Of a DNA stretch of 64,000 nucleotides, positions 20,503 through 52,116 are shown in pieces. The stretch comes from an uncultured Gammaproteobacteria bacterium (GTDB lineage Bacteria; Patescibacteriota; Patescibacteriia; SG8-24). Numbering within the stretch: position 1 is the stretch's first letter; the number at the start of each line of letters is the position of its first letter. The stretch spans positions 136,766 to 200,765 of the forward strand of contig CAZBFO010000003.1 in the NCBI GenBank assembly GCA_964491475.1. Reading direction: 5' to 3'. The notes under the pieces are model-generated. The model was not told the origin of the DNA. It was given only the letters and a program-made list of their open reading frames with translations, and ran no database searches. A program made the position numbers and the translations under genes.

Positions 20503-20609
20503 CTCGATTTTCTTTCGGAACGGCAGCACAATGCGGCCGGTTCGGAAGGCAGCCGAGTGGCTACAAGTTTGCAGAGGCGGTGTCTTTGCGCAAAATAACC
20601 CTTTTATTG

Positions 20610-21074: not shown

Positions 21075-21098
21075 GTTCGAATCCTAGCCTACCCACCA
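21014..21098 (+). tRNA. tRNA-Tyr (anticodon GTA), type II with long variable arm, CCA encoded
   Basis: Acceptor GGGTAGG/CCTACCC, anticodon stem AGTGA/TCACT with loop CTGTAAA, variable arm TGGCTATGCCTTC (GGC/GCC stem), T-arm CTAGG-TTCGAAT-CCTAG, discriminator A plus CCA. 85 nt. Confidence 0.85.
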
Positions 21099-21116
21099 CC
21101 CAACTTTTCACCTCGG

Positions 21117-21192
21117 GCCACCTTAGCTCAGCTGGTAGAGCACCTGTTTTGTAAACAGAAGGTCCCGGGTTCGATCCCCGGAGGTGGCTCCA
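21117..21192 (+). tRNA. tRNA-Thr (anticodon TGT), CCA encoded
   Basis: Acceptor GCCACCT/AGGTGGC, D-arm GCTC-AGCTGGTA-GAGC, anticodon stem CCTGT/ACAGA (one C.A mismatch at the base) with loop TTTGTAA, T-arm CCGGG-TTCGATC-CCCGG. Confidence 0.75.
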
Positions 21193-21270
21193 CCCATCTG
21201 ATGAGGGGCGGCTCTGGACAGATTTCCGCAGATAAGATAGGCTCCTCCCATTGAGTGAACCAACCCCTGT

Positions 21271-21426
21271 ATGTCACAAGACAACCTCGTAAAACTGGAG
21301 TGCACGACCTGCCACCGGGTCAACTACTACTCCCACAAGAACAAGAAGAAGCTCAAGGCTCGCCTCGAGATCAAGAAGTTCTGTGAGTGGTGCGACAAGC
21401 ACGGCGGTCACAAGGAGACCAAGTAA
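21271..21426 (+). CDS. rpmG: 50S ribosomal protein L33 (too short for the ORF track)
   Basis: Translation MSQDNLVKLECTTCHRVNYYSHKNKKKLKARLEIKKFCEWCDKHGGHKETK (51 aa) carries the L33 zinc-ribbon CxxC...CxxC. Confidence 0.85.
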   Translation: MSQDNLVKLECTTCHRVNYYSHKNKKKLKARLEIKKFCEWCDKHGGHKETK

Positions 21427-21452
21427 GCTTGGTCCGCCTGGTCCGCAAAGAA

Positions 21453-21481
21453 GTCAGCCTTCACAAGGGGCTGATTTTTTG
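21453..21481 (+). terminator. rho-independent terminator after rpmG (tcagcc ... ggctga + tttttt)
   Basis: Hairpin 21454..21474 followed by T6. It overlaps the arfB promoter: -35 ttcaca at 21460..21465 and -10 tatact at 21483..21488 with a 17-nt spacer. Confidence 0.6.
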
Positions 21482-21497
21482 CTATACTTAGGCGCAT

Positions 21498-21995
21498 ATG
21501 GGTCCATTTGGTGGAGAAGGTCGCGGCGGGTACGTGCCTCCCGAACATATGACGGAGCCCCAACCGCAGCCCGAAAAACATGACGGTCCTGCCCCGTCCG
21601 TTCCCGAGAACGAGATGCAGTTTACGTTCTCCGCTTCCGGCGGCCCCGGCGGCCAGAACGTGAACAAGGTGGCATCCAAGGCGACCCTGCGTTGGAACGT
21701 CGGCGCTTCGGGAGCCTATTCCGAAGAGCAAAAGCAGCTCATACGCGAGTATGCCGGCAGCTACCTCAACAAAGCCGACGAGATCATCATCCAGTCCAAC
21801 GAACAGCGTTCCCAGCATCAAAACCGCGACAGCGCGGCCGAGCGTCTGCAAAACCTGGTGGCACAGGCGCTGATCCCCAAGAAGGAACGCAAGGAAACCA
21901 AGCCCAGCTGGGGCGCAAAACAAAAACGCCTCGACGAGAAGCGCATGGAAAGCAACAAGAAGAAGGAAAGGCGCCGCGGCGGGGATGACTTTTAA
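21498..21995 (+). CDS. arfB: peptidyl-tRNA hydrolase ArfB (alternative ribosome-rescue factor B, GGQ protein)
   Basis: A GGQ motif (SASGGPGGQNVNKVASKATLRW) and a basic C-terminal tail (KKERKETKPSWGAKQKRLDEKRME) match ArfB/YaeJ. The ATG at 21498 is only 9 nt after the -10, so the transcript may be leaderless. Internal starts at 21549 or 21617 are possible. Confidence 0.75.
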   Translation: MGPFGGEGRGGYVPPEHMTEPQPQPEKHDGPAPSVPENEMQFTFSASGGPGGQNVNKVASKATLRWNVGASGAYSEEQKQLIREYAGSYLNKADEIIIQSNEQRSQHQNRDSAAERLQNLVAQALIPKKERKETKPSWGAKQKRLDEKRMESNKKKERRRGGDDF

Positions 21996-22051
21996 ACGGC
22001 TGGACAAGCCCCAAAAGGCGCGTTATTATCGTCCCACGAAGCTGATCTCAT

Positions 22052-22125
22052 AGGGGATTGGTGAAATGGTATCACAAGGGTCTCCAAAACCCTTGTCGTA
22101 GGTTCGATTCCTACATCCCCTGCCA
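22052..22125 (+). tRNA. tRNA-Trp (anticodon CCA), CCA encoded
   Basis: Acceptor AGGGGAT/ATCCCCT, D-arm GTGA-AATGGTA-TCAC, anticodon stem AGGGT/ACCCT with loop CTCCAAA, T-arm GTAGG-TTCGATT-CCTAC, discriminator G plus CCA. 74 nt. Confidence 0.85.
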
Positions 22126-34376: not shown

Positions 34377-34566
34377 CCCCGACTCGGCTTAGGGCCGAGT
34401 CTTTTTTATGAACGGCTATTTCGTCCACAGGCAATCTTGGGTAGGGAGGGAGGCTTGCGAAGGGTGTGGATAAATGGTATACTTACGGAGTAAACAAAAA
34501 TAAATAAAGCGTGTCTCGTTCCGCCAAAAGAAAGGCGAACGGCTTGGGCATGCGTAAAAACGCTCT

Positions 34567-35325
34567 ATGCAGCACGATTCTCTTTCCAAGGCAGAGCCGC
34601 AAAAGTCGTTGCCTCACCATGTCCATCCGCTGGTGGCTTGGACGGCAATCTTTAACTTCGCGCTGATTTTCAGCCTCGCGCCGACGATGATTTTGGCCCA
34701 GACTACCACTTCCGCGATGTCGGAGGGCAGTGAGGCCGTGGCCATGCGTCTGCCGGAATCGTCCAAGTTGGCTTATGCCCGCCACATCGCCATGGAGCAG
34801 GAGGGCGTGACGCCTTCCGATTCCCAGCATGGCAGCATGGAAGCTGACCGCAAGGGCGACCACAACAAGGGCGGCAAGGACATGGGCATGACGAAGAAGA
34901 TGGGCGACGGCGACACGGCGTCCTCGTGCGTCCGCAGCTGCCGAATCACCAAGTCCGATTGCACTCGCACCGCCGAGAGCAACGGTCCGGCCCTCCATGT
35001 CTGCTACGAGAAGTTCGCCAAGTGCATGGATGCCTGCGGCGTCAGCTTGGTCGCCGGCAGCAAGGGTGCCAAGTTCCTGATGTCCACCGGTCTCAAGGAT
35101 GCTGAACAGGCATATAAGGATGCGGCCGCCGCAGCCCGCAAGAAGCGCTCCGACGCCTTCAAGAAGGCGCAGGCGGACTTTGAGGCCGACATGAAGGCCG
35201 CGCAGGACGCTTTCAAGGCGGCGAAGGACGCCGCCAAGGCTGCAGCCAAGGAGACGTCCGCTTCCACCGACACGACCGGTACGACCACGGCCACCACGAC
35301 GACCGACAGCGGCAGCTCCAACTAA
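34567..35325 (+). CDS. membrane-anchored/secreted hypothetical protein with Cys-rich module and amphipathic Ala/Lys-rich helical repeats
   Basis: TM segment LVAWTAIFNFALIFSLAPTMILA; six Cys in SSCVRSCRITKSDCTRT...HVCYEKFAKCMDACG; a DAFKKAQADFEADMKAAQDAFKAAKDAAKAAAKE tail and a Thr-rich C-terminus. Confidence 0.45.
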   Translation: MQHDSLSKAEPQKSLPHHVHPLVAWTAIFNFALIFSLAPTMILAQTTTSAMSEGSEAVAMRLPESSKLAYARHIAMEQEGVTPSDSQHGSMEADRKGDHNKGGKDMGMTKKMGDGDTASSCVRSCRITKSDCTRTAESNGPALHVCYEKFAKCMDACGVSLVAGSKGAKFLMSTGLKDAEQAYKDAAAAARKKRSDAFKKAQADFEADMKAAQDAFKAAKDAAKAAAKETSASTDTTGTTTATTTTDSGSSN

Positions 35326-35529
35326 AGCTTTAACCAAAAGCGGCCCGAAGCTCATCGGGCCGCTTTTTCAGTTCTTGTATCGCTTCTCCCGGGCGTCCAC
35401 CCAGTACGGCATCGCAAAGAGGGAGGGAAAGGGTTGACGAACGGGAGAAAGCGTGGTAGGCATAGACGTTCGGGAAAGCCCATTTTTTGGCCTGGACACA
35501 GGTCGTTCACAACACAGAAAGGAAAAGCG

Positions 35530-36558
35530 ATGAGCGGAGGAAGTTACAGGGACTACGAAGGGTCGGTGGGAAAGGCCTACCGGGACTTGAACAGCGACGA
35601 TACGGCGGAGCGCGAACGCGCGGAACGAGCACGGATGTCGCGGCTCAACGAGGCCCGCAGCCGCATCGACCGCGGCGAGACAGCACCGCCTCCCGTCCGC
35701 GAGACGCGTGAGGTCTACGACCGGAAGCTGGCGAGGAACAAGATCACCGTGCCGTCTGCGAAGACCAAGAGCTTGCATGTCGTATTGATGGACAACTCCG
35801 GCTCAAACCAGAGGATCGCCGAGCACGCCAAGAAGAGCTCGGGCTACATGCTGTCCATCCTGGGCATCATCGACCCGACTTCGCAGATCGCCTTCGACTA
35901 CTTCAGCGACCACTGCGACGGCGACGGGCTGATGCAGGAGGTCGACTACGTCTCGCCGGGCGAGAAGGGCGACAAGATCATGCATTCGTCGATCGCCTGC
36001 GTCAGGCCGGCGGGCGGCGGCGACGCGCCCGAGGCCATCGAGTGCGCGTTGTGGTCGGCCTGCGAGTACGACTTCGGTCACGTGCAGGACCGCCACCTCT
36101 ACCTCGTTTCCGACGTGGTGGCCCACGGCATGGGGATGCGCGAAGACGACGGCTGTCCGGACGGCCGCGACTGGAAGGAGGCGCTGGCCCGCGTCCGGAA
36201 GACCTACCGTTCGTTCGAGGTCGTCGGCAGCGGCAGCGACACGCAGACGGCGAGGCTGCAGCATCAGTTCGTGGCCAAGGATCGCGTCGGGTTCGATTTC
36301 ATCGACCTGTCCGAGATTCCCACCCACGAGCATCGCTGCGGCATCACCGTCAACACGCTGCTGTTCCTGATCGCGCGGCGACGGGGAATGCAGTGCGTCG
36401 AGACCTTCCTGATGACGCTCTACGAGAAGTGGCTGACCGAGCCGATCTTCGGCGCAAACACCGACCTGGGAGCCCGCGAAGCCATCACGCGCTTCGTCCA
36501 GTTCCTGGAGGTCGACGAGCCGGCGCGGAAGAAGCTGCTCGAGCGCATCTTCGCCTGA
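35530..36558 (+). CDS. von Willebrand factor A (vWA/MIDAS) domain protein, TerY-like
   Basis: The ATG at 35530 has RBS aaaggaaaag. MIDAS motif LHVVLMDNSGSN (DxSxS), later GGGDAPEAIECAL and SDVVAHG (Rossmann-like vWA fold). Confidence 0.65.
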   Translation: MSGGSYRDYEGSVGKAYRDLNSDDTAERERAERARMSRLNEARSRIDRGETAPPPVRETREVYDRKLARNKITVPSAKTKSLHVVLMDNSGSNQRIAEHAKKSSGYMLSILGIIDPTSQIAFDYFSDHCDGDGLMQEVDYVSPGEKGDKIMHSSIACVRPAGGGDAPEAIECALWSACEYDFGHVQDRHLYLVSDVVAHGMGMREDDGCPDGRDWKEALARVRKTYRSFEVVGSGSDTQTARLQHQFVAKDRVGFDFIDLSEIPTHEHRCGITVNTLLFLIARRRGMQCVETFLMTLYEKWLTEPIFGANTDLGAREAITRFVQFLEVDEPARKKLLERIFA

Positions 36559-36589
36559 CGGCGTCGCGGAATAGGCCGTGACGCACCTT

Positions 36590-36619
36590 GGCCGCGGCGA
36601 AAGTCGCGGCCGTTTTTTA
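36590..36619 (+). terminator. intrinsic terminator/attenuator hairpin between the vWA and kinase genes (ggccgcg-gcgaaagt-cgcggcc + gtttttta)
   Basis: Perfect 7-bp GC stem plus T6. The kinase gene has its own RBS 20 nt later. Confidence 0.5.
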
Positions 36620-36650
36620 TCCCGGCAGTCATGCCAAGAAGGAGAAAGTC

Positions 36651-38258
36651 ATGACGGTGATGTTGCCGGAGTTTCGGCTGAATGAAGAAGCGATGCACGA
36701 ATACTGCGAACGCCGCGGAGCAACGCTGCTTCGCGTGCTGCAGGAAGCGCGCGGGGGCACCGATGCCTGCAGCGGCGTGTTCCTGGCGATCGATGCCGAC
36801 GGCATCGTGAAGGTGTTCAAGGAGGAGCTGCCGCACAAGGATGCCGAGGTCGGCGCGACCGAAAAGGAATCCGAAGTGCACGCACGATTGGAAGGGCTTC
36901 CGTTTTTTCCAAGGCTCTACGGGGTTGAGGATTTCGGAGGCATTTCGGTGATGCGACAGTCGGTAGCATACGGACAAGAGCTGCAGGCCTGGCTCGATGC
37001 CGGAGTGCAGTTCGCACCGCAGGAGGTTCGTTCGATCATGGGACGGGTTGCCGGAGCGTTGGCTGTCATGCATGAACGGGGAGTCCTGCATCAGGACATT
37101 CGTCCGGCCAACATCAGGATCGATGGCGACGCGCTGTCGCTGATTGATGTCGGTGACGGTCGTATCTGCAAGGCAGGCAAGGTCATATCCGCGACTCCCA
37201 GCGATCCGGTCTACGCGCCGCCTGAAACGGCTTCGCAAGGGCAGGCGTCAGTCGTATCTGACGTGTTCCAGTTGGGGGCAGTCGGCCGGCAGTTAGCCGA
37301 CAGACGGGCCTTCCAGTACGCGCAACTGAACTCCTGGATCGACCGTATGGTCAATCCTGACCCGAACGGCCGTCCGAGCGCAGCGTCCGTTGCCAGCGGC
37401 TTGGGCGAAACGGGGCGATTGCGCATCCATGCCCCGCGCGGATCGCGCCGTACCTTGCCAGATGCGGGCATCGTGCTGTTCCCGGCAAGGATGGGAATCC
37501 CGCACCAAGGCCACGTCGATTTTATCGCACGGGTCATGGAGTTGGGATTTCCCGTCATCATCTCGCTGCAGCGGTCGTACACGATAACCGACCGCGACCC
37601 GTTGCCGAAGTGGCAGGTGATGAAGATGGTGGCGGCGTCGCTGGTCGAGAAGGGCTTCGTGCCGGACCAGGACTTCAGCTTCGTCTTCACGCCCCTGTTC
37701 GGGAGCGACGAGGCGCATCGGATGCACTTCGCCATGATGCCCGGAATGGACCGGGTGGTCGCGGTGGCGTCGGGCAACCCCGACGTGCAGGCGCTGTTTC
37801 CGGAGCTGCCGTTCATCGACCAGCGCGCGGTGTTCGGTCACGAAGGCGAGGACTATCTGGAACGGTCGTGGGGCGAAGGGCTCCGGGACGCGGTCCGTCT
37901 CGGCGTGCGCGGCACGTTTTCCGCGCTCGCGGCCTCCGGCGTCGAGAAGGTCCTCTCGTTTGCGGAGCTGCGCCGCGATTACGCCGCCGTGCAGGTCGAG
38001 TTCGTGCGAGGCTCGGTGACGGTCGTCGTCATCGACGGTGCCGGCAACGAGGCCGCTCGCGGGCGTGCGCTTCGTTATCTCGCGCCGCAACAGTCTGCCG
38101 TCCGCCACCTGGCGGCGACCGGCCTGCAGACGCGGGTCACCGACCTGTATGCGCGTGACACCGCCGTCGAGGTCGACGGCGTGCCTCGCGTCCTGCGGGA
38201 TGCCGGAACGACCGTCGACGCCGAAGGGAACGTCGAAATCAGCTTCGCGCTCGTTTGA
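36651..38258 (+). CDS. Hanks-type Ser/Thr protein kinase fused to a C-terminal cytidylyltransferase-like (HxGH nucleotidyltransferase) domain
   Basis: Kinase: beta3 Lys GIVKVFKEE, catalytic loop HQDIRPANIRI, DVG in place of DFG, APPE, and DVFQLG. C-terminal: GIVLFPARMGIPHQGHVDFIARVMELGFPVIISLQRSYTITDRDPLPKWQVMKMV matches the NMNAT/CTP-transferase HxGH ... ISxxR pattern. RBS ggagaaagtcATG. Confidence 0.65.
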   Translation: MTVMLPEFRLNEEAMHEYCERRGATLLRVLQEARGGTDACSGVFLAIDADGIVKVFKEELPHKDAEVGATEKESEVHARLEGLPFFPRLYGVEDFGGISVMRQSVAYGQELQAWLDAGVQFAPQEVRSIMGRVAGALAVMHERGVLHQDIRPANIRIDGDALSLIDVGDGRICKAGKVISATPSDPVYAPPETASQGQASVVSDVFQLGAVGRQLADRRAFQYAQLNSWIDRMVNPDPNGRPSAASVASGLGETGRLRIHAPRGSRRTLPDAGIVLFPARMGIPHQGHVDFIARVMELGFPVIISLQRSYTITDRDPLPKWQVMKMVAASLVEKGFVPDQDFSFVFTPLFGSDEAHRMHFAMMPGMDRVVAVASGNPDVQALFPELPFIDQRAVFGHEGEDYLERSWGEGLRDAVRLGVRGTFSALAASGVEKVLSFAELRRDYAAVQVEFVRGSVTVVVIDGAGNEAARGRALRYLAPQQSAVRHLAATGLQTRVTDLYARDTAVEVDGVPRVLRDAGTTVDAEGNVEISFALV

Positions 38259-42610: not shown

Positions 42611-43258
42611 TCAGCGCCGGGTCGGCTTTCGCCACTCGACGATTTCGCCGGCGCGAATCTCGACGTCGTCCGCTTTCCGAAGCGCGGCGACGTCTTTCGT
42701 TTTGAGGATGCTGACGTGCGGAACCGCGCAGAGGTGCTCCGGCACGAACCAGACCGGATCCTCGGAAGTCATCCAGCCGTGCTTGTCGAAGCGCGCCAGG
42801 TTCACGGGACGGGAGAAGGTCCGCATGGTCTTGCGCCCGTTCTGGAGGAAGTATTCGTGAAAGTAGGACATTACCAGCTCGCGGACGTTGGCGTAGACGG
42901 GTTCGCGGTAGCGCAGCACGCCGTGGTTGGTCTTGGAGAGGGCGCCCCAGCGTCCGCGCTCGCGGAACACGGTGATGACGTGGTCGTAATCGCCATCGGC
43001 GGCCTCGATGTCGACGATCAGCGGCGGATGGCCGATGAGCCGCAGCGCGGCGGCCGCGAACATCGCGCCTTCCATGCATTGCGCGTTGCGCTCGGCCAGC
43101 ACGCGGCGCGGCGACTTGCAGGTGTCGCCGTCCGGCTCGAAGTTGAACGGCATGGCGTTCAGGAAGTCCTGGATTTTGGCAGGCGCGGTCAGCCGTCGCA
43201 GCACTTTCATCTCCGCAGGCGTGAATCCGAAGTCGCGCATATGCGGGTAGTGTAGCAT
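42611..43258 (-). CDS. hypothetical protein, possibly a papain-like thiol enzyme fold (weak)
   Basis: The first ATG is at 43258 (MLHYPHM...). The ORF-track TTG at 43318 would overlap the divergent promoter. A conserved-looking AQCMEGAMFAAAA segment and downstream DYDHVITVF carry candidate Cys/His residues. Confidence 0.4.
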   Translation of the reverse strand: MLHYPHMRDFGFTPAEMKVLRRLTAPAKIQDFLNAMPFNFEPDGDTCKSPRRVLAERNAQCMEGAMFAAAALRLIGHPPLIVDIEAADGDYDHVITVFRERGRWGALSKTNHGVLRYREPVYANVRELVMSYFHEYFLQNGRKTMRTFSRPVNLARFDKHGWMTSEDPVWFVPEHLCAVPHVSILKTKDVAALRKADDVEIRAGEIVEWRKPTRR

Positions 43259-43282
43259 GCGCCTTGCATGCGGGGCACGGTA

Positions 43283-43311
43283 TTGACTTTGGGTTTTTTT
43301 GCTGCTAGCTT
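43283..43311 (+). promoter_or_regulatory. sigma70 promoter (-35 TTGACT, 17-nt spacer, -10 TAGCTT) for the gene at 43340
   Basis: ttgact at 43283..43288 and tagctt at 43306..43311, followed by a strong RBS ccaggaggaaacaATG. Confidence 0.5.
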
Positions 43312-43339
43312 TCGGCAACGTCCTTTCCAGGAGGAAACA

Positions 43340-44241
43340 ATGTCATTTCTGCAAACGTTGCGCGGCGTCGCGTCCATCGTCGGGGCCGGCGTCGACCTGT
43401 GGGTCGAACCGCCGGGAACCGACGGTCTGACCGTCACGTTAGACCGAGGCTGGGCCGAACGGCACGCGGCCGCGCGCAAAGAGTTCCGCCGGAACAATCC
43501 CGAGTTTGCCGAGCGGCAACGGAGGCAGACGGAGGACTTTCGCAAGAGAGGGCTCCTACGCGAGGTGCCGAAGAACCTGCACGAATACATCTGCGCCTGA
43601 AACATGCGGCGACGGGCGGGGAGTGGGAAGCGCGGCTTTCCATCGACGCCGACCAGGAGCGCGTCGACTGGACATACACGTCCGGCGAGCTGTTCAGCCG
43701 CAGGCACCTGGGTTCCGCCGCCATTGGCGTGTTTTTCATCACCCTGCCCGCGGCGGTGCTGCTGTCGCCGTACCTGTTCGTGCGGTCGCGCCTGTACGCC
43801 GCCGAGGAAGAGCGCCTGCAGATGTCTCGTCACGCCATCGCTCTTCTCAAAGCGCTCGGTGATCAGATCACCTTCGACGAGCAGCGCGAGCTGACCGTGG
43901 CGTTCAAGAACGAGTGGCAGTACGAATGGCTGATGAAGCAATCCATCGGTTTCGAACGCGCCAAGGAGTTCCTGAAGGCGCTGCCGCTCACCGAAGAGCG
44001 CGTTACTGCCGACGCCGCCAAGGACTACGACGACTGCGGCGCGACGAGCCTGCACTGGTTCGGCGAACAGGGCGACTGCCTGGCTAGCGGAAGCTTTTAC
44101 GGCGAACGCGACCACTACGTCGACGTGCTCGCCTCGCGTTTCGAAGGTAAAGAGGCCGACGTGCTGGCCGCCTGCTATGCCAAGCGCAGGCTGCGGATCG
44201 ACGGCAAAGACCAAGACGAACAGGAAGAAAAGAAGGCATAA
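43340..44241 (+). pseudogene. hypothetical gene split by a -1 frameshift near 43595 (ORF1 43340..43600, continuation in the -1 frame to 44241); alternatively two adjacent genes
   Basis: ORF1 ends ...KNLHEYICA at 43600. The overlapping -1 frame reads ...RIHLRLKHAATGGEWEARLSIDADQERVDW... with no ATG before 43822. The downstream part has a TM-like segment (AAIGVFFITLPAAVLLSPYLFV) and an acidic C-terminus. Confidence 0.4.
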
Positions 44242-44312
44242 AAAAGAACCGCACTGCATGTGCGGTCCGAGCGCCAAGCGGCGCTCTTTTTCTTTTTCTC
44301 CGGTCGCCGAGG

Positions 44313-45506
44313 TCAGTAGACCTTGGGCTTGCCGGCGTCGAAGCCGGCGGAACGTTTGCCGTTACCGGTCGGTTTGACGGGAACGCCGCGGAGCATGTCC
44401 CAGGGGATGTGCACGCCGATCTGCACCAGCGCGTTGAGGATGTAGGGGACGCGCGCCGGCGACTCCGTCGGCAGACGGTAGATCGCCGCCGCGTAGGACT
44501 TGAGCGCGTCCTCGCTCTGGGTGATGTCGTCCGAGACGGCGAGGTCGAGCAGGTTGACCAGCTCCTCGCGGTTCATGCAGCCGGTCGCGGAGACCAGCTC
44601 TGGCCGTTCGAAGATCGTCTGGAAGTGGTCCGCCTCGGCGGCCAGGCCGCGCGAGACCAGGACGCCCGGCCCGCAGAACACCTCGTTGTACCCGTCGATC
44701 ACCTTCTTTGCCGACGCGATGATCGGGTTGATGTCCGGCATGTTGTTGACCGGGGGAGGGGCGCCCATCTGCATCCCGCCGCCGGCCAGCTGCTGCACCA
44801 TCGTCTGCATCGCCTGCTGGAACGCGAGCGGGTTCGCCGACTGCGTCAGCCACGAGTCGTTCCAGGCCTTGGCCCGATCGTGGAAACCCGAGATGAGCGA
44901 CCAGAAGCTCTCCGCCTTGGAGAGAAATTCCCGCTTGTTCTTCTCGGTGTAGATGCGCGAGGTTGAGACCTTGGCCGCCGCGAACACGTCGCGGTAGGCC
45001 TTCTGCGTGAACAGGTCCTGGAGCTCGTAGTAGACCGGAGGGTACTGCTCCTTGTTCTTGGCGGTGCGGTACTCGATCGCCGACATGAGGTTCTCTTCGA
45101 GGTCGAAGAGGCCCATGCGGTAGGCGAGCAGGACGCTCACGGCGGCCGCGACGTCGTTCTCCTCCATCTTGGGGACGCCGCCGACCTGCAGGAGCTTGAT
45201 GAGCGATTTGCCCCTCGGGATGACCGGGAGCAGGCTTGCGGCTCCGGCGATCGGATCCATAGGGGCGGCCGTGCCCGCCAGGTTGGCGGGCGGCGTCGGC
45301 GCGGGTTTGAGCTCGATGATGAGCTTGCGCGCCTTGACGAGCGGGACGCCGAAGCCGGTCCAGTCGTTTTCGGTGAGCAGCGCCGCGTCCTCGAGCGTCT
45401 CGACCCCGGCGGCCTTGGCCTTGGCAGCCACGTCGGCCACCTTCGCCTTGGCCTCGTCCGTATCGCTGCCGAACAGGGCAGTCAGTTTCGCGAGCAACTC
45501 GTCCAT
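44313..45506 (-). CDS. hypothetical protein
   Basis: The ATG at 45506 (MDELLAKLTALFG...) has RBS gacggagacatctcATG. 397 aa. The longer ORF-track N-terminus (to 45626) is basic low-complexity. Confidence 0.5.
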   Translation of the reverse strand: MDELLAKLTALFGSDTDEAKAKVADVAAKAKAAGVETLEDAALLTENDWTGFGVPLVKARKLIIELKPAPTPPANLAGTAAPMDPIAGAASLLPVIPRGKSLIKLLQVGGVPKMEENDVAAAVSVLLAYRMGLFDLEENLMSAIEYRTAKNKEQYPPVYYELQDLFTQKAYRDVFAAAKVSTSRIYTEKNKREFLSKAESFWSLISGFHDRAKAWNDSWLTQSANPLAFQQAMQTMVQQLAGGGMQMGAPPPVNNMPDINPIIASAKKVIDGYNEVFCGPGVLVSRGLAAEADHFQTIFERPELVSATGCMNREELVNLLDLAVSDDITQSEDALKSYAAAIYRLPTESPARVPYILNALVQIGVHIPWDMLRGVPVKPTGNGKRSAGFDAGKPKVY

Positions 45507-45921
45507 GAGATGTCTCCGTCTTTCGTTGTGGTTGCGCGATCGTATTGGAAGGAACAGACGCTGCAGTACACCCTTTTCTGCCCCGATTGTCAAGCGTTTT
45601 CGACGAGCGCTGCGGCTTGTCCACAACGCGCCCCGCCGGCGCTGCTTGACGGCATTCCTGCGAGTGGTACAACTGCAGGTGTTAGTGTACTACATACACA
45701 AACTAACAAACCGGCACGGCGCGTCAAGGCCGCATGTGGACAGACGCATTGATGGCCGGCGAAGATTGACTTTCGACCGCTTTCTCCGTAGATTTCCGTT
45801 GCCTCTTTTTCTCCCTCGTCCGGTCCACCGCGCCGCGCGGCCGTCCGGGGGAGGCAAAGAACTCCGGTTCGGCCTCGAATTTCGCAACTTGAAAACCAGC
45901 AAAGCAAACCAAGGAGGAAAC

Positions 45922-47577
45922 ATGGCTGCTGCCATCGACATCAGCGCGGTACCGTTGCCGCCGCCGTGGAAGGAGGCGCTCGTCCTGCTCGTCGGCCGCT
46001 GCATCGGCGACCCGGGCTCGTACGCAGACGCAGCCTCTGCCGCGGGCGCGATCATCTCGGCGCTGTTCGGCAAGGGCGCACCCGCCTTCGGGCAGGTGGC
46101 CCGCACCGGCGAGGCCGAGCTGAAGACCGCCTGCGGTCAGGCCGGTCTCGGCGCCGACGCCCTGCCGGTTGCCAAGCTGCGGGAGCTCGCGGAGCTGCTG
46201 CCGCTGGTCCGGCCGGAAACGCCGATCTGCGACGAATGCGGGAACTACCCGCTCTCGTGCGTCGGCGGCAAGGTCATGACGCTGGCGGCCGGCGCGAGCT
46301 GCCCGTTCTGCGTCGGCGGCAAGCTGGCCGTCGTGCCCATGCGCCTGCGCAAGCTGGCCTGGACCGACGGCCGCCTGGTCGAGCCGCAGGTCGCGCACGA
46401 CCTTCGCGCCTTTCCCGGCACGAGCATCCCGCTCGACGACGCCGAGATCGTCGCCTGGGTCGGCGGCATCATCAGCAAGCCGCTGGAGATCGCCCTGCGC
46501 GACGCCGGCGTGCCTCTGTACGGCTGGCTGGCGCACATGCACCTGAACGAGAAGGCGCTCCCGTCCTACGTGGAAGTCGCCGACATCCTGCAGGACATGC
46601 GTGCCGCGGGACTCGATGGCGACGCGGCACTTCGCCGCAGCGTAGCCGAGGCGGGGGAGTTCCTTGCATCCAAGGAAGTCACCAACCTGCCCAGGCGGAC
46701 GCGGTTGCCGTTCATCAACGGCGACATCGACGCGCTGCCGCGCCTGACCGTCGCCGGACGCACCTACGTCCTCGAAGGCAAGGTCGGCAGCGGAGACGCG
46801 TCCGACGTCTATCGCGGCGCGTGGGACAGTCCCAACACCGAACGGGTCGTCATCAAGGTGAGCCGCGGCGGGAAGGACGGCCAGGACGGCAAGGACGAGG
46901 CCAAGCGCCTGGCGCGCGAGGTCTCCGTGCTCTCCACGCTGGCTAACAGCAAGGAGAACGGCGCGGCGTTCATGTCGCGCCTGCTCCCGGAAGTCGTCGC
47001 CGCGGGCTCGGTGCCCGGCAGCGACGGCGCGCTCAAGGCCGTCACGGTGTTCCGGTACAAGAACGGCTTCGACTGGACGCTGGCAGACGCCATCGCGGAG
47101 TATCCCGAAGGCGTCGAGCCACAGACCATGGTCTGGATGATGAACCGCTGCCTGCTGCTGCTTCGGTGGCTGCAGATGAACCAGACGGTGCACGGCGCGC
47201 TCTCACCGGAGCACGTCCTCATCCATCCCGGCTATCACGCGGCCACCTTCGTCGACTGGACCCATGCGGTCCGCGTCGGCGGACGGAAAGCAGCGCTCAT
47301 CGACGGTCAGCCGGCGACGTTCGACACGGACGTGGCCGCGCTGTGCCGCTGCATGATCGCCGTGCTCGGGGGCGACCCTGCGAGCGGCGACATGCCGGCC
47401 GCGGTGCCGCAGGTCATCGCCGAGTTCCTGCGTTTGCACGCACGTTGCGAAGCCGGTGACGGTTCACGGCGCTTCGTCGATGCCGAAGATCTCGAAAAGG
47501 AATTCGGCAAGGCCGCGACTGCGGCTTACGGCAAGCGCCGCTTTCATCCTTTCTTCTTGCCCCGGCCGAAACGGTGA
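45922..47577 (+). CDS. Zn-ribbon plus protein-kinase-like (probable pseudokinase) protein
   Basis: Strong RBS aaggaggaaacATG. N-terminal CDECGNYPLSC ... CPFCVGGK (CxxC-x25-CxxC). Kinase-like region: Gly-loop GKVGSGDASDVY, VVIKV Lys, and catalytic loop HGALSPEHVLI, where the catalytic Asp of HRD is Ala and the N is His. The DFG position reads FVDWTHA. Confidence 0.6.
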   Translation: MAAAIDISAVPLPPPWKEALVLLVGRCIGDPGSYADAASAAGAIISALFGKGAPAFGQVARTGEAELKTACGQAGLGADALPVAKLRELAELLPLVRPETPICDECGNYPLSCVGGKVMTLAAGASCPFCVGGKLAVVPMRLRKLAWTDGRLVEPQVAHDLRAFPGTSIPLDDAEIVAWVGGIISKPLEIALRDAGVPLYGWLAHMHLNEKALPSYVEVADILQDMRAAGLDGDAALRRSVAEAGEFLASKEVTNLPRRTRLPFINGDIDALPRLTVAGRTYVLEGKVGSGDASDVYRGAWDSPNTERVVIKVSRGGKDGQDGKDEAKRLAREVSVLSTLANSKENGAAFMSRLLPEVVAAGSVPGSDGALKAVTVFRYKNGFDWTLADAIAEYPEGVEPQTMVWMMNRCLLLLRWLQMNQTVHGALSPEHVLIHPGYHAATFVDWTHAVRVGGRKAALIDGQPATFDTDVAALCRCMIAVLGGDPASGDMPAAVPQVIAEFLRLHARCEAGDGSRRFVDAEDLEKEFGKAATAAYGKRRFHPFFLPRPKR

Positions 47578-47641
47578 ACCGTGAGGCCGTGGCGAAGGTT
47601 CGTTCCTTTGATAAGCAACCACACAGTTCCGGAGGTACGTC

Positions 47642-48646
47642 ATGGGCGGAGGATTGTATGACAGGGCGGCGCACGACGCCATCACCACCACGCGTGCGGA
47701 GCTGCCGCGCGAACAGGTGTTCCGTGCCAGCGAGATGAACCCGCTGATGGACCCGAAAGGCGTGAAGTACCGGGAGAGCTGCGACAGCGCGGCGCACCCC
47801 AACTCCAACGCCATCATCTTCGTGGTCGACGAGACCGGCTCGATGCAGCGCATTCCCGAGTACCTGGCCAAGACCGGCCTGCCGCCGCTCATGGGCATGC
47901 TGTACGACGCCAAGCTCATCGAGGACCCGCAGCTGATGCTGGCTGCCGTCGGCGACGCGATTCACGGCAACGGCTGCGAACGCTCGCCGCTGCAGGTCGG
48001 GCAGTTCGAGTCCGAAGCGGCGCTGATGGACAAGTGGCTCACGGCCATCCACCTGGAAGGCATCGGCGGCGGCAACGGAGGCGAGTCGTACGACCTGGCC
48101 CTGTACTTCGCAGCGCGCCACACCAAGATCGACTGCTACGAGAAGCGCGGCAAGAAGGGCTACCTCTTCATCTCCGGCGACGAGCCGCACCTGCGGCAGG
48201 TCGACAGGGAAGCGGTGCTCCGGCGAATCGGCGACGATCTCCCCGCGAACATCCCGATCGCCGACATCGTCGCCGAAGCCTCGGAGAAGTATCACTGCTT
48301 CTTCCTGGTTCCCGACAAGCGGCGCGCCGGGCAGTGCGAACGCTACTGGCGCGACGTGCTCGGCGACAACGTCGTCGTGCAGGACACCGAGGTCGACACG
48401 GCCGCCGTGACGGCGGTGCTCGTCGGACTGACCGAAGGCACCATCGCCTCGGTCAACGACGTCGAGGACGTGCTCGTCGGACTGGGCTGCGACGCGGCCC
48501 AGGCAAACCGCGTACGCGGGACCGTCGAGGCGTACGCGGCGGCCATCGGCCGCGGCGGGCAGTCGCGGCCGGTGCAGGGAACGGAGCAGCCGGACGCGTC
48601 CGATCCCAAGTCCAAAGGCAAGGGCAAGAAGCGCGGTCGGGTCTGA
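47642..48646 (+). CDS. von Willebrand factor A (vWA/MIDAS) domain protein, paralogous module to 35530..36558
   Basis: RBS ggaggtacgtcATG, 64 nt after the kinase-like gene with no terminator. MIDAS IIFVVDETGSMQ (DxTGS), GGGNGGESYDLAL, and FISGDEPH. A terminator follows at 48692..48722. Confidence 0.65.
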   Translation: MGGGLYDRAAHDAITTTRAELPREQVFRASEMNPLMDPKGVKYRESCDSAAHPNSNAIIFVVDETGSMQRIPEYLAKTGLPPLMGMLYDAKLIEDPQLMLAAVGDAIHGNGCERSPLQVGQFESEAALMDKWLTAIHLEGIGGGNGGESYDLALYFAARHTKIDCYEKRGKKGYLFISGDEPHLRQVDREAVLRRIGDDLPANIPIADIVAEASEKYHCFFLVPDKRRAGQCERYWRDVLGDNVVVQDTEVDTAAVTAVLVGLTEGTIASVNDVEDVLVGLGCDAAQANRVRGTVEAYAAAIGRGGQSRPVQGTEQPDASDPKSKGKGKKRGRV

Positions 48647-48691
48647 CGGTCGTTGACCGTTTGACCTGACGCTTCCGAAAGGTTACGGTAC

Positions 48692-48722
48692 GGGGTCCTG
48701 CGGTGCAGGGCCCCTTTTTCTT
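48692..48722 (+). terminator. rho-independent terminator (ggggtcctgc ggt gcagggcccc + tttttcttcc)
   Basis: 10-bp stem with one G.U pair and a T-run. It sits between the vWA and the PurA-like gene. Confidence 0.6.
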
Positions 48723-48749
48723 CCCGAAAAAGGAAAGGAGTTCTTTGTC

Positions 48750-50162
48750 ATGACAGGCAAGACCAAGAAGGCATTCATCGTCGTCGACCTCGGTTATGGC
48801 GACGCCGGCAAGGGCACCATGACCGACTGGCTGGCGCGCACCGAGCAGGTGCACGCGGTCATCCGCTTCAACGGCGGCTCGCAGGCCGCCCACAACGTGG
48901 TCACGCCGGACGGCCGGCACCACACCTTCTCGCAATTCGGTGCGGCCACTTTTGTTCCGGGCGTGCGCACGCACCTGTCGCAGTTCATGATCGTCAATCC
49001 GCTGGCGATGGTGCGCGAAGCGGCGGTGCTGGCAGGCAAGGGAGTTCCCGACGCCTTCGCCAGAACCACGATTCACGCGCGGGCACTGGTGACCACGCCG
49101 TTCCACGTCGCCGCCAACCGGCTCAAGGAAATCGGCCGGGGAGCGGCGAGGCACGGCAGCTGCGGCGGCGGCATCAGCGAGACTGCGGCGGACGCGCTGA
49201 CGCTCGGCGAATCGGTCGTCCGCGTGGGCGACCTGCGCGATCGCGACGCGCTGTCGCGCAAGCTCGCCTTCGTGCAACGCCACAAGCGCGGGCAGCTCGA
49301 CGCGCTCATCAGGACGTGCGCAGGCGAACCGCAGGCGCAGGCCGAGATTGCGGTGCTCGAAAGCGCCGACGTCATCGATGCTTACTGCCGGCAGATCGAG
49401 GCGTTCCTGGCACAGGCCGACATCGTGGCCGGAAACGGGCATTTGAAGGACCTCGCGGGCAGCGTCGTCTTCGAAGGCGCGCAGGGCGTGCTGCTCGACG
49501 AGTGGCACGGGTTCCATCCGTACACCACTTGGAGCACCTGCACGTTCGCCAACGCGCTTGAAATCAGCCGCGAGTGCGGAGACGCGCTCGGCGAAATCGT
49601 GCGCGTCGGCGTGACGCGAGGCTACGCCACGCGGCACGGCGCCGGCCCGTTCGTCACCGAAGACGCCGATCTGACCAAGAAGATTCCCGACCGCCACAAC
49701 GTCATGGACGACTGGCAGCAGGGATTCCGCGTCGGCTGGTTCGACGCGGTGGCGACGCGTTACGCGATCGCGGCTTGTCAGGGCATCGACACGTTGGCGG
49801 TGACCTGCATGGACCGCCTGCTCGAAGTCGGCCCCGAATGGCAGATGTGCGACGCTTACGCGCTCAAAGCGGCATCGCCCTCCGAGAAGCGCATGGTCAG
49901 AAAGTTGTTCGAGGAAGACAGCGCGGCGGAGCGCCATAGCCACATCAAGTCAGGCGCGGAGCGTGACCTTTCGCTTCAGGAGGAGCTGACCAAGCTGCTG
50001 CGGCTGGCGAGGCCGGAGTACGTCACGTTCCGCCCCACGGACAGGGCCGGCGTGCGGCGTGCGGTCAGCGACTATCTGGAGCTGATCGGCGACGGCCTCG
50101 GAATCATGCCGAGCTACGCCTCGTTCGGGCCTTCGGCCACGGACAAGAAGGTACTGAAGTAG
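48750..50162 (+). CDS. adenylosuccinate synthetase (PurA) family paralog, divergent
   Basis: RBS aaaggaaaggag. VVDLGYGDAGKGTMTDWL matches the PurA N-terminal GDEGKGK P-loop. IRFNGGSQAAHNVV matches the GGHNAGH region. FEGAQGVLLDEWHGFHPYTTWS matches FEGAQGxLLDIDHGTYPYVTSS. ATRHGAGPFVTE matches STRVGxGPFPTE. Where PurA has the GTTTGRxRRxGWLD loop, this protein reads WQQGFRVGWFD. Confidence 0.6.
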   Translation: MTGKTKKAFIVVDLGYGDAGKGTMTDWLARTEQVHAVIRFNGGSQAAHNVVTPDGRHHTFSQFGAATFVPGVRTHLSQFMIVNPLAMVREAAVLAGKGVPDAFARTTIHARALVTTPFHVAANRLKEIGRGAARHGSCGGGISETAADALTLGESVVRVGDLRDRDALSRKLAFVQRHKRGQLDALIRTCAGEPQAQAEIAVLESADVIDAYCRQIEAFLAQADIVAGNGHLKDLAGSVVFEGAQGVLLDEWHGFHPYTTWSTCTFANALEISRECGDALGEIVRVGVTRGYATRHGAGPFVTEDADLTKKIPDRHNVMDDWQQGFRVGWFDAVATRYAIAACQGIDTLAVTCMDRLLEVGPEWQMCDAYALKAASPSEKRMVRKLFEEDSAAERHSHIKSGAERDLSLQEELTKLLRLARPEYVTFRPTDRAGVRRAVSDYLELIGDGLGIMPSYASFGPSATDKKVLK

Positions 50163-50322
50163 ATGCGAGGGCGGCTTCGGCCGTCCTTTTTTCTTTGCAT
50201 GAAAACTGCTCGACGAAGATCGATCCGGAAAGCGTAAGCGGTTCAATTGAGGTCCTCGTCCTCCTCGCTCGGCACGGCATGAACCCCTTTACCCGGGCAC
50301 GTTCGGATGCTACCTTGCGCCC

Positions 50323-52116
50323 ATGAGCACGCTGCTTCAGGTCAACGACGTCACCAAGCGCTACGGCCCGCACGTGGTTCTCGACCACGCGCGCATTTCG
50401 TTTGCCGACGGGCAGAAAGTGGGCGTCATCGGACGCAACGGCGCCGGCAAATCCACGCTGGTTCGCATCATCGTGGGCGACGACGAGGCCGACGAAGGCG
50501 GCGTCACGCGGCACTCCTCCCTGCGATTGGGGTACCTTGAACAGCACGCGCCGTACCGCGAAGAAGAGACGGCCATGGCCTTCCTGACGCGTTACGCCGC
50601 AGTCGAGACTTGGCGGGCCGCCAAAGCCGCCAGCCGATTCGAGATGAAAGGCGAGATGCTCGAGCGTCGCATCTCCGAGCTGTCCGAAGGCTATCGCATG
50701 CGCGTGCGCCTGACCGGCATGCTGCTGCGTGAGCCGAACTTTTTGGTGCTCGACGAGCCCACCAACTATCTCGACCTCCGCACCCAGATGCTGCTCGAGG
50801 AATTCCTGCGCACCTTTCGCGGCGGGTTCCTGGTCGTCTCGCACGACCGCGAGTTCCTCAAGAACACCTGCCTCGAGACGCTGGAGGTGGATCGCGGCCG
50901 GCTGTTCCTGTATCCGCAGGGCATCGAGGCGTACTTGGCGTACAAGGAACAGCGCGCCGGGGAAATCGAACGCGAGAACAAAAAGATCGACGCGCGCCGC
51001 CGCCACCTGCAGGAGTTCGTGGACCGCTTCCGCTACAAGGCCAAAAAGGCCTCGCAGGCGCAGTCCAAGCTGAAGCAGATCGCGCGGCTCCGAAACATCG
51101 AGATCGAGCACCCGATGGCTACCGCGCGCATCGTCATTCCCGCGCCGAAGATCAAGAAGGGGATCGCCGTGCATTGCGAGAACCTTGCCATCGGCTATCC
51201 GGGCAAGACCGTGGCCGACGGCATCTCGATCGACTTGGAGCGCACGCGGCACATCGCCGTGCTCGGCGACAACGGGCAGGGAAAGACCACTTTTTTGCGC
51301 ACGCTTGCGGGTCTGCTCGAACCGCAGGGCGGTTCTTACCGCTGGGGCGCCGATTTGCAGGTGGCCTACTACGGTGAAAGCGTCTTTCGCTCGATGGAGC
51401 AGCACGACAAAGTCGGCCCGTACCTGATGCGCAAGGCCGCGTCGGGCGTGACCACCGAAGAAGTGCATCAGATGGCCGGCAACTTCCTGTTCAGCGACGA
51501 CGACATGGAGAAGACCGTCGCCACGCTTTCCGGCGGCGAGCGCAGCCGCCTGTGCCTGGCCGGACTGCTGCTGACCGGCAGCACCGTCTTCCTGCTCGAC
51601 GAGCCCACCAACCATCTCGACTTCGAGACGGTCGAAGCGCTGGGCATGGCGCTCGCGGACTATCCCGGCACCATCGTCTTCGTCAGCCACAACCGCACTT
51701 TCGTGAACCTGATCGCCACGGCCATCATCGAGGTGCAGGACGGCCGCGTACGCGCCTTCTCCGGCACGTACGAGGAGTACGTCTACATGATCGAGGAGCA
51801 CATTCACGAGACGCAGCCCGCCGCCGCGCCGAAAGCGGTCGCCGCCGCGACCAAACCCGTCGAACCGGAAAAGCCGACGGCCCGCGAGATCCACGAGGAG
51901 ATCAAGGAGCAGAAAAAGAAGATGCGCAAGATCGAGGAACGCGTGGCAGGTCACGAATCGGAACGTGAGACCATCTTGGCCAAGATGGCGATGAATCCCA
52001 CGGTCTTCTCGCCCTCGCTCAACCAGCGCCTGCACGAGATCGGCCAGCTCATCGCAAGGGACGAAGAGGAGTGGTTCAACGCGCGGCAGGCCATCGAGTG
52101 GTTGGAGAAGGAGTGA
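50323..52116 (+). CDS. ABC-F family ATPase (tandem NBDs; EttA/Uup/YheS-like translation factor)
   Basis: Two ABC cassettes (Walker A GRNGAGKST and GDNGQGKTT, signatures LSEGYRMR and LSGGERSR) joined by a charged linker. No TMD; C-terminal coiled coil. Confidence 0.8.
   Translation: MSTLLQVNDVTKRYGPHVVLDHARISFADGQKVGVIGRNGAGKSTLVRIIVGDDEADEGGVTRHSSLRLGYLEQHAPYREEETAMAFLTRYAAVETWRAAKAASRFEMKGEMLERRISELSEGYRMRVRLTGMLLREPNFLVLDEPTNYLDLRTQMLLEEFLRTFRGGFLVVSHDREFLKNTCLETLEVDRGRLFLYPQGIEAYLAYKEQRAGEIERENKKIDARRRHLQEFVDRFRYKAKKASQAQSKLKQIARLRNIEIEHPMATARIVIPAPKIKKGIAVHCENLAIGYPGKTVADGISIDLERTRHIAVLGDNGQGKTTFLRTLAGLLEPQGGSYRWGADLQVAYYGESVFRSMEQHDKVGPYLMRKAASGVTTEEVHQMAGNFLFSDDDMEKTVATLSGGERSRLCLAGLLLTGSTVFLLDEPTNHLDFETVEALGMALADYPGTIVFVSHNRTFVNLIATAIIEVQDGRVRAFSGTYEEYVYMIEEHIHETQPAAAPKAVAAATKPVEPEKPTAREIHEEIKEQKKKMRKIEERVAGHESERETILAKMAMNPTVFSPSLNQRLHEIGQLIARDEEEWFNARQAIEWLEKE

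Follow-up and report, generated by a model that had tools for sequence, protein, structure and literature searches.

The window analyzed here, a 64,000-nt stretch of contig CAZBFO010000003.1 from an uncultured bacterium, encodes between positions 45922 and 50162 a copy of a three-gene module that is both widespread and horizontally mobile. In this module, an enzyme of the adenylosuccinate synthetase (PurA) family is genetically coupled to a dedicated vWA protein with a metal ion-dependent adhesion site (MIDAS), and usually also to a degenerate kinase-fold protein. The module is undescribed and is built from known folds, with a new specificity in its PurA-family member. That it is a conserved functional module with a reaction other than that of PurA is near certain. 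Its role is more tentative: the module may work in nucleotide homeostasis linked to nicotinamide adenine dinucleotide (NAD+) and ADP-ribose, with a PurA-like enzyme acting on a new substrate, a vWA partner and a pseudokinase adaptor, a reading to which we assign a probability of roughly 0.45. Judged from sequence, the residues lost from the enzyme and the links to NAD and ADP-ribose genes appear to point to nucleotide chemistry of a new kind.

The three genes are plus-strand open reading frames (ORFs). The G+C content of the window is about 64%, and the three genes are supported by the frame-specific G+C content at third codon positions (GC3), which is of the coding type for all of them (0.83-0.90).

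45922..47577, plus strand: gene 1, kinase-fold protein of the long-form subfamily, 551 aa, GC3 0.83, AAGGAGG resembling a ribosome-binding site (RBS) upstream
47642..48646, plus strand: gene 2, divergent vWA/MIDAS protein, 334 aa, GC3 0.90
48750..50162, plus strand: gene 3, predicted GTP-dependent ligase of a distinct PurA-family subfamily, 470 aa, match to PF00709 at 5e-60

Linkage of the three genes

A scan of one genome per species gave 80 loci with a PurA-like gene, and their flanks were searched by tblastn and with hidden Markov models (HMMs). Four of the 80 lie at contig ends and were uninformative, leaving 76. All three genes are present in 66 of the 76, only the vWA and PurA-like genes in six, and the PurA-like gene alone in four. 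The informative loci cover at least six phyla, including Chloroflexota, Myxococcota, Actinomycetota, Patescibacteria and Proteobacteria, and nearly everywhere the genes run on one strand as kinase-like, vWA and then PurA-like; locus L008 is rearranged, with the kinase-like gene downstream. In Myxococcus faecalis the order is the same, the genes overlap, and their products share 44% (vWA) and 38% (kinase-like) identity, both by pairwise BLASTP, and about 50% (PurA-like) with those of the window. Leptospira, Ca. Accumulibacter and three long metagenomic contigs also have the gene order of the window. The vWA and PurA-like pair is the invariant core, the kinase-like gene being absent in Rhizobium and Vibrio jumbo phages and a few bacteria. 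The initial annotation, made from the letters of the window, had proposed that the three genes belong together, and the wider survey bears this out.

Two further arrangements were observed. Ca. Sungbacteria (L057:5415-7595) has two tandem vWA paralogs before the PurA-like gene, no kinase-like gene, and nadE directly downstream. Matches H1-H12 in PLSDB are PurA-like genes on Rhodococcus megaplasmids and a Variovorax plasmid, about 42% identical to that of the window.

The signals around the genes in the window bear on one alternative, that the three genes have no functional connection and that the PurA-like gene is a paralog transcribed on its own.

45766..45794, plus strand: sigma-70-like promoter candidate 5' of gene 1, TTGACT-17-TAGATT, 9/12 consensus matches, a consensus match only
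48692..48714, with T tract to 48724, plus strand: terminator-like hairpin in the gap between the vWA and PurA-like genes, 10-bp stem with 8 G-C pairs, 3-nt loop, then TTTTTCTT
to 48724, plus strand: T tract 3' of the 48692-48714 hairpin, TTTTTCTTCC
50167..50188, with tail to 50198, plus strand: terminator-like hairpin closing the module, 9-bp stem with 6 G-C pairs, then TTTTCTTTGC

The promoter candidate is the sole such site in 45500-50500 (mean of 0.2 in shuffled sequences). RBS-like AAGGAGG, GGAGG and AAGGAG stand before the starts of genes 1, 2 and 3, respectively, and the 64-nt spacer between genes 1 and 2 has no terminator-like hairpin. An Rfam scan of 45400-50400 gave no matches. The motifs and coordinates quoted in the initial annotation, its 64-nt spacer and its terminator and RBS before the PurA-like gene, are all present. 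The strong hairpin and separate RBS that split the vWA and PurA-like genes in the window speak for a chance neighborhood. However, the pair is adjacent in 72 of 76 loci and the triad in 66, across phyla and phages, and stop and start codons overlap in some copies. Many relatives do not have a vWA/PurA-like gap as in the window; in Myxococcus these two genes overlap. The conservation data already contradict a chance neighborhood, which we hold to be extremely improbable.

Substrate pocket of the PurA-like enzyme

The PurA-like protein matches PF00709 (Adenylsucc_synt) over residues 10-375 (E 5.4e-60), and PurA chains in the PDB match it down to 4e-33. The motifs GDAGKG, GGSQAAH, FEGAQG and DDWQQGFRVGW are present. 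A search returned more than 7000 homologs, canonical PurA included; those listed among the top matches, from Myxococcus, Chloroflexota, Ktedonobacterales, Patescibacteria and Binatia, are 45-57% identical over the full length, and across many phyla the identity to homologs is 45-59%. The protein nevertheless scores below the cutoffs of the NCBIfam purA models (NF002223, 168 vs 402 bits; TIGR00184, 138 vs 395.6) and of the PurZ model (NF038379, 36 vs 300 bits). No second PurA homolog was found in the 64-kb window.

To map residues, 89 family members were aligned to Escherichia coli PurA (sequence from the PDB alignment), and E. coli numbering is used here. We take the substrate roles of the E. 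coli residues, as ligands of GTP, of the 5'-phosphate of inosine monophosphate (IMP) and of L-Asp, to be those of the PurA literature. The catalytic and GTP residues D13, K16, H41, Q224 and D333 are kept in 88-89 of the 89 members and in the window protein, the SxGP element is retained, and T239, a 5'-phosphate ligand, and R306 are essentially invariant. T239 is the only IMP 5'-phosphate ligand kept: N38 is replaced by Gln in 89/89, T129 by Cys in 88/89, T128 by Ser, and R143 by Asp or Glu in 70/89. S240 is Trp. In the L-Asp pocket, V273 is His in all 89, T300/T301 are Trp/Gln, R305 is Phe in 78, and the R303 position is a gap or a variable residue. The family thus retains the residues for GTP binding and for phosphorylation of a lactam oxygen, while the ligands of the IMP 5'-phosphate and of L-Asp have given way to a different, equally conserved set.

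Housekeeping PurA was rejected as an identity, the scores lying far under the NCBIfam equivalog cutoffs and the Asp and IMP 5'-phosphate ligands (except T239) being replaced. PurZ was rejected on its score (36 vs 300 bits) and because the signature residues differ. The family is a distinct PurA subfamily, neither housekeeping PurA nor PurZ. The remodeled substrate loops that the initial annotation had read from the window protein are thus found again, both in the sub-cutoff scores and in the residue map.

The same residues bear on the possibility of an alternative AMP-forming enzyme. Such an enzyme would serve purine salvage by turning IMP into an adenine nucleotide, for example with ammonia as the donor or with some other one, and the vWA protein and J-domain pseudokinase would be no more than assembly or maturation chaperones, like MoxR-vWA pairs. 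The retention of D13, H41, Q224, D333 and T239 would fit such a reaction, as would the presence of the module in Patescibacteria, a group in which de novo purine synthesis may often be missing. Both J-domain and vWA proteins are also classic co-chaperones (PMC7824862). However, R143 has become acidic, N38, T129, V273, T300, T301, R303 and R305 are changed family-wide, and the scores stay far under the purA equivalog cutoffs. The module would also coexist with a normal purA in organisms and phage hosts. We consider this alternative quite unlikely, and AMP synthesis is in general an unlikely role for the module, as is classical phospho-signaling.

The vWA protein

The AlphaFold2 (AF2) model of the gene 2 product (predicted local distance difference test, pLDDT, 89; predicted template modeling score, pTM, 0.87) has integrin beta I-like domains as its top Foldseek matches (probability 1.0, E 5e-7), which supports a vWA fold as modeled. 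No Pfam VWA family matched at E<=0.1, the only hit being DUF444 (E 0.024, 14 bits vs cutoff 27). The fold was established from the structure model alone, since a profile search of PDB sequences found nothing. The family is large: a search of 1.84 billion representatives at E<=1e-3 gave 1515 clusters at 50% identity.

47642..47662, plus strand: conserved vWA N-terminal motif MGGGLYD, family pattern M-G-[SYG]-[GS]-x-[WYF]-[SD]
47828..47842, plus strand: vWA MIDAS motif D63-E-T-G-S67, with D63, G66 and S67 invariant
L092:22338-24122 (mycobacteriophage Ronan gp258) and metagenomic protein P0394: Hint/intein insertions in the vWA gene, in the strand KKGY-LFxGDE

The MIDAS motif is of the DxTxS form and reads DVTGS or DETGS in almost all copies; a second MIDAS element, G179-D180, is also invariant. 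The inteins of the two homologs listed above lie exactly within the conserved MIDAS strand, between KKGY and LFxGDE, a placement that underlines the importance of the site. At the N-terminus, G2, G4 and Y6 are invariant in 32 homologs, and the family pattern begins nearly all of 82 vWA copies, phage copies included. Removal of the Met would leave an N-terminal glycine. No true vWA-PurA fusion was found, the long vWA homologs being intein-containing or frameshifted.

This N-terminus invites a reading in terms of protein-nucleotide conjugation. Here, the PurA-like enzyme would be a ligase directed at a protein: the alpha-amine of the vWA N-terminal Gly would take the place of Asp, a 6-oxopurine nucleotide, once activated with GTP, would be joined to it via C6, and the pseudokinase or J-domain partner would control or read the mark. 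It would amount to a previously unknown N-terminal "purinylation" of a protein, used by bacteria and phages in conflicts related to NAD and ADP-ribose. The near-universal motif, the loss of all Asp carboxylate ligands alongside kept catalytic residues, the retention of the vWA and PurA-like pair as a core when the kinase-like gene is missing, and the lack of any fusion that buries the vWA N-terminus are all consistent with it. However, the idea is purely inferential, four PurA-like genes have no adjacent vWA gene, and a docking or autoinhibitory peptide would explain the conserved N-terminus equally well. Both the conjugation and its use as such a mark seem to us decidedly doubtful.

The kinase-like protein

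The profile of the kinase-like family matches CK2alpha and other kinases in the PDB (1e-12). The AF2 model of the gene 1 product (pLDDT 87) matches Mycobacterium tuberculosis PknB in Foldseek (E 2e-8, template modeling score 0.72), and the kinase matches cover residues ~273-551. The same region is 38% identical to a 339-aa partner protein of Myxococcus (pairwise BLASTP).

46228..46311, plus strand: Zn-ribbon segment of gene 1, residues 103-130, CDEC...CPFC
46738..47574, plus strand: kinase-fold domain of gene 1, approximately residues 273-551

The motifs CDEC...CPFC, VVIKV, HGALSPEH and VDWT are found in the protein. The beta3 Lys (K312) and the alphaC Glu (E333) are invariant across about 64 homologs, and H424, G425, A426, P429, H431, H439 and D470 are also conserved. 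In about 60 of the 64, the catalytic loop reads H424-G-A-x-x-P-x-H431, with the Asp base replaced by Ala and the Asn by His. The DFG position is VDW (D445) in the window, Asp in J-domain forms and Gly in short Zn-ribbon forms, and the glycine loop is non-canonical, with G291 alone conserved in the family. The gene 1 product therefore has a kinase fold and is a pseudokinase by canonical criteria, its canonical catalytic residues being lost family-wide. The initial annotation had likewise taken it for a probable pseudokinase or scaffold. Its reading of the active site stands for the VAIK-like Lys (VVIKV), HGA and DWT and fails for the Gly-loop, which it took to be intact.

Three N-terminal forms of the kinase-like partner are found. 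One is a J-domain with an HPD motif (Chloroflexota, Actinomycetota, Saccharibacteria and mycobacteriophages), a DnaJ domain with HPD being present in 10 of 28 aligned members. The second is a short CxxC...CxxC ribbon (Myxococcota, Leptospira and Accumulibacter). The third, of about 270 aa, is long and helical with a Zn ribbon, and is shared by the window, Uhrbacteria, Binatia, Eisenbacteria and a gammaproteobacterial metagenome-assembled genome. The window protein has no DnaJ match and no HPD motif. Among 28 long-form homologs, the ribbon Cys residues C103, C106, C127 and C130 vary rarely or not at all, and the segment forms short beta strands in the AF2 model. The ribbon had been placed at the N-terminus; it is present, but follows about 100 residues of helices.

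NAD-related genes near the module

Clustering of the neighborhoods gave one recurrent extra gene, a regulator with NUDIX and NrtR_WHD domains, in at least 29 loci. In Actinomycetota and in L025 and L087 its place is directly upstream, on the strand of the module; in Saccharibacteria it is mostly divergent (upstream, on the opposite strand), and in L039 it lies downstream. NrtR proteins repress NAD genes and respond to ADP-ribose (PMC2330246, PMC6800001). In Ca. Accumulibacter, one operon comprises pncB, nadE, nadM-Nudix and the kinase-like, vWA and PurA-like genes, and in two Patescibacteria loci pncB and/or nadE adjoin the PurA-like gene. In total, 32 of 86 loci have an NrtR-type or NAD-salvage neighbor (pncB, nadE or nadM). 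By a rough estimate, a few percent would be expected by chance.

In 22 of 24 loci, the 120 nt before the NrtR-like gene contain a palindrome, TCTCA-N3-TGAGA, often as 2-3 copies 16 bp apart. Elsewhere it occurs once in about 370 kb, a density of 0.003 vs 6.5 per kb. Its extended form is about TGTTCTCA-N3-TGAGAACA, and it differs from the mycobacterial NrtR site, GTTTTCGA-N7-TCGAAAAC (PMC6800001). The palindrome is a candidate operator for the Nudix regulator, whose gene comes first in the operon.

Loci with TCTCA-N3-TGAGA: L023, L025, L037, L041, L049-L052, L056, L059, L060, L065, L066, L069, L073, L074, L076, L077, L079, L081-L083

The uncharacterized NrtR-regulated genes nrtX-nrtY of the 2008 NrtR paper (PMC2330246, Table 1) form a two-gene unit in other genera and were not equated with the module. 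In Myxococcus faecalis (L003:5924-7450), a gene for a PF25302 NADase_transloc-domain protein and a PIN-domain gene lie just upstream of the module, which may be another NAD-related neighbor or a coincidence.

Phage copies

Phage protein families match all three window proteins: phrog_3043 ("kinase") matches the kinase-like protein at 7e-11, phrog_2971 (unknown function) the vWA protein at 9e-47, and phrog_1211 the PurA-like protein at 5e-74. Among cluster C mycobacteriophages, about 200 of the Bxz1 type have the module, and phage records number 219 for the vWA protein and 240 for the PurA-like protein. In phage Cali, gp251 has a J-domain and an HGA kinase-like domain, is 37% identical to an actinobacterial member, and is followed by gp252 (vWA), gp253 (88 aa) and gp254, labeled "PurA-like adenylosuccinate synthetase". 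The PurA-like proteins of the Bxz1-type phages are about 40% identical to that of the window over 99% of its length. Rhizobium and Vibrio phages encode the vWA and PurA-like pair only. The phage labels "PurZ-like" and "2-aminooxy adenylosuccinate synthetase" are annotation transfer. In Rhizobium phage RHph_TM30 (L090:915-3242), genes for a HAD-like hydrolase, a PRTase_3 protein (ComF-like, 9e-46) and a NUDIX protein lie upstream of the pair, with a HIRAN-domain gene between.

The phage copies bear on whether the module serves anti-phage defense. In such a system, the pseudokinase/vWA pair would sense a phage cue and release the PurA-like enzyme, which would deplete GTP or IMP or make a toxic or signaling nucleotide, leading to abortive infection. 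The distribution of the module is patchy and horizontally transferred, with copies on Rhodococcus megaplasmids; two copies have AbiEii/AbiEi genes and an NB-ARC-TPR gene nearby, and the kinase-like protein weakly matches the PD-T4-6 and MADS6 kinases. Nudix-HTH regulators and vWA "peptide-binding chaperones" are also known from conflict systems linked to ADP-ribose (PMC9503650). However, PADLOC-DB v2 gave 0 matches for the vWA and PurA-like proteins, and the kinase-like matches are weak (1e-3) and generic. Most flanks, including those of the window, are housekeeping or metabolic, and the module is present in small Patescibacteria genomes. About 200 lytic mycobacterial myoviruses carry the module, and a purely abortive-infection role is hard to reconcile with its upkeep by such phages. 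We regard a defense role as unlikely.

Proposed role

Of the roles considered, one in NAD+ and ADP-ribose-linked nucleotide homeostasis seems the most likely because the module recurs beside NrtR-type regulators and NAD-salvage genes. The odds of the NAD link as such are about even. Under this scenario, the nucleotide activated by the PurA-like enzyme would be of the 6-oxopurine (hypoxanthine) type but not free IMP, and would lack a free phosphate at its 5' end. A dinucleotide or an ADP-ribose-like hypoxanthine compound, such as deamino-NAD or IDP-ribose, would be a candidate, and an acidic residue at the R143 position would suit the ribose hydroxyls or the pyridinium of a dinucleotide; these proposed substrates are guesses. 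An amine that is not aspartate would then be joined to the activated nucleotide. The vWA protein may be an obligate partner, with its MIDAS site and the invariant Gly motif at its N-terminus enabling it to act as presenter, acceptor or regulator/gate. The pseudokinase may be a nucleotide-binding adaptor, its J-domain forms connecting the enzyme/vWA pair to Hsp70. Such a module could be useful to bacteria and phages alike during heavy NAD turnover or consumption.

Several observations weigh against this proposal. The window itself has no homolog of NrtR, pncB, nadE or nadM in its 64 kb and no copy of the operator, and about 60% of loci are without a NAD-related neighbor. Because many of the NrtR-linked loci are related actinobacteria, the 32 loci represent about 5-7 independent associations with NAD genes. 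The mycobacteriophage copies are not in a NAD context, and the RHph_TM30 label "NMN adenylyltransferase/NUDIX" was rejected; the phage link to NAD is weaker than annotation suggests, since Pfam finds NUDIX only in that gene and the PRTase is ComF-like, not NadV. The 48692-48714 hairpin would allow the vWA and PurA-like genes of the window to be expressed separately. The kinase-like protein may even have atypical catalysis of the SelO kind because K312/E333 and three invariant His are retained. Finally, all mechanistic steps past residue conservation are inferred.

The overall interpretation in the initial annotation is partly supported, and the sequence observation behind it is confirmed. That the module makes or senses a modified nucleotide is plausible. 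The initial annotation had named three findings that would undo it, namely a sole housekeeping purA with a normal active site, no conserved linkage and no protein-kinase fold; the active site is altered, the linkage is conserved and the kinase fold is present. The lytic-phage copies, the J-domain variants, the linkage to NrtR and NAD salvage and the invariant vWA N-terminus had escaped it.

Genomic context in the window

The flanks of the module are ordinary chromosome. They encode a P-type ATPase, a glutathione S-transferase and ABC-2 transporter genes, then three minus-strand ORFs without a family; other flanking genes are ABC-F, gpsA, inositol monophosphatase and pyrF. The three consecutive ORFs (42611-45626, minus strand; 235, about 356 and 437 aa) have good GC3 and lie immediately upstream of the module and divergent from it. 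They match no Pfam or NCBIfam family and are not conserved beside the module in other genomes. A tRNA-Thr, tRNA-Tyr, tRNA-Thr and tRNA-Trp cluster at 20427-22125 is typical of the conserved tuf/secE/nusG chromosomal region, and the window is therefore core chromosome and not a mobile element.

A second locus in the window, here called module 1 (35434-38258), encodes a 374-aa protein (35434-36558) with a DNSGS MIDAS-like motif and no family match, and a 556-aa kinase (36588-38258) with a canonical Pkinase domain (1.8e-16). The initial annotation had considered the vWA protein of the three-gene module to be a paralog of the vWA-like protein in module 1 and had grouped both loci, the latter with a cytidylyltransferase, into one family of cassettes. 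Of this, the MIDAS motif DETGSM and, from the AF2 model, the vWA fold stand. Paralogy was rejected, the similarity being remote only (E 4e-4 over 104 aa) and the HMM of the vWA family giving no match. The cassette family does not hold up either: the kinase of module 1 is of the ordinary Pkinase type, the vWA-like protein beside it gives no match to the HMM, and no cytidylyltransferase was detected by Pfam or NCBIfam at 34483-35355.

Significance

To our knowledge, only two substrate pairs have been described for PurA chemistry until now: IMP plus Asp and, in PurZ, dGMP plus Asp. PurZ led to the discovery of the Z-genome. The family described here adds a third PurA lineage, which has a completely remodeled substrate pocket, is widespread, and is common to bacteria and large lytic phages. 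NAD+ depletion and reconstitution are currently a central theme of phage-host conflict, and because NrtR regulators and NAD-salvage genes are found beside it, the module could be an unrecognized arm of NAD or nucleotide repair or of counter-defense.

Comparison with known systems

Full-text searches of the published literature found no description of the module, the label "PurA-like" appearing in phage genome announcements only, and neither the vWA nor the PurA-like protein has a PADLOC model; the composition is undescribed, as initially proposed. Membership in PurA, PurZ, TerY-P, PrkA-YeaH-YcgB and the PADLOC systems was tested and rejected in each case.

The closest likenesses are to PurA and PurZ. 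With PurA (EC 6.3.4.4), the enzyme of the module shares the fold, the GDxGKG P-loop, Asp13, His41, Gln224, the guanine-specific Asp333 and the SxGP element. It differs in that the IMP 5'-phosphate ligands (except T239) and L-Asp ligands are replaced and in that its gene adjoins a vWA gene in 72 of 76 loci. PurZ, of the phage 2-aminoadenine pathway, is likewise a PurA-family enzyme with altered substrate specificity that is carried by phages, but the module lacks the PurZ signature residues and was not seen in a DpoZ, DatZ or MazZ context.

The TerY-P triad of vWA protein, Ser/Thr kinase and PP2C phosphatase and the Ter-linked nucleoside-metabolite genes were reportedly described by Anantharaman, Iyer and Aravind in 2012. 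The module resembles the triad in having a vWA gene beside a kinase-fold gene, and one phage pair lies near HAD-like, PRTase_3 (ComF-like) and NUDIX genes. However, the kinase of the module is degenerate, and its vWA protein belongs to a separate family without a Pfam VWA match. No PP2C or other phosphatase was found among the neighbors at 35434-56997, and no Ter genes in the window. The likeness to TerY-P drawn in the initial annotation does not survive the lack of a PP2C phosphatase and of an active kinase. In PrkA/YeaG-YeaH (DUF444 vWA)-YcgB (SpoVR), a kinase-like gene is also followed by a vWA gene, and there is a hint of DUF444 (E 0.024). That hint is sub-threshold, however, no AAA+/PrkA or SpoVR match was found, and a PurA-like enzyme stands in that place.

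The module also shares features with NrtR regulons and the phage NAD+ reconstitution pathways NARP1-3: relatives adjoin an NrtR-type regulator with a palindrome, or pncB, nadE or nadM, and both bacteria and phages are involved. Its proteins are nevertheless unlike the Adps, Namat, Nampt, NMNAT and PnuC/NadR proteins of NARP1, NARP2 and NARP3 (PMC13464706; bioRxiv 10.1101/2024.02.11.579819); NARP3 consists of PnuC and NadR and is unrelated to the module (PMC13464706). Finally, in MoxR AAA+/vWA and J-domain/Hsp70 pairs, as in the J-domain forms of the module, a MIDAS vWA adaptor is encoded beside a chaperone-recruiting protein. The module differs from these in having no AAA+ ATPase and a J-domain fused to a pseudokinase, with a Zn ribbon in the window copy. 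Given these likenesses, the module may be best compared to a ligase of the PurA/PurZ type attached to a pair resembling co-chaperones.

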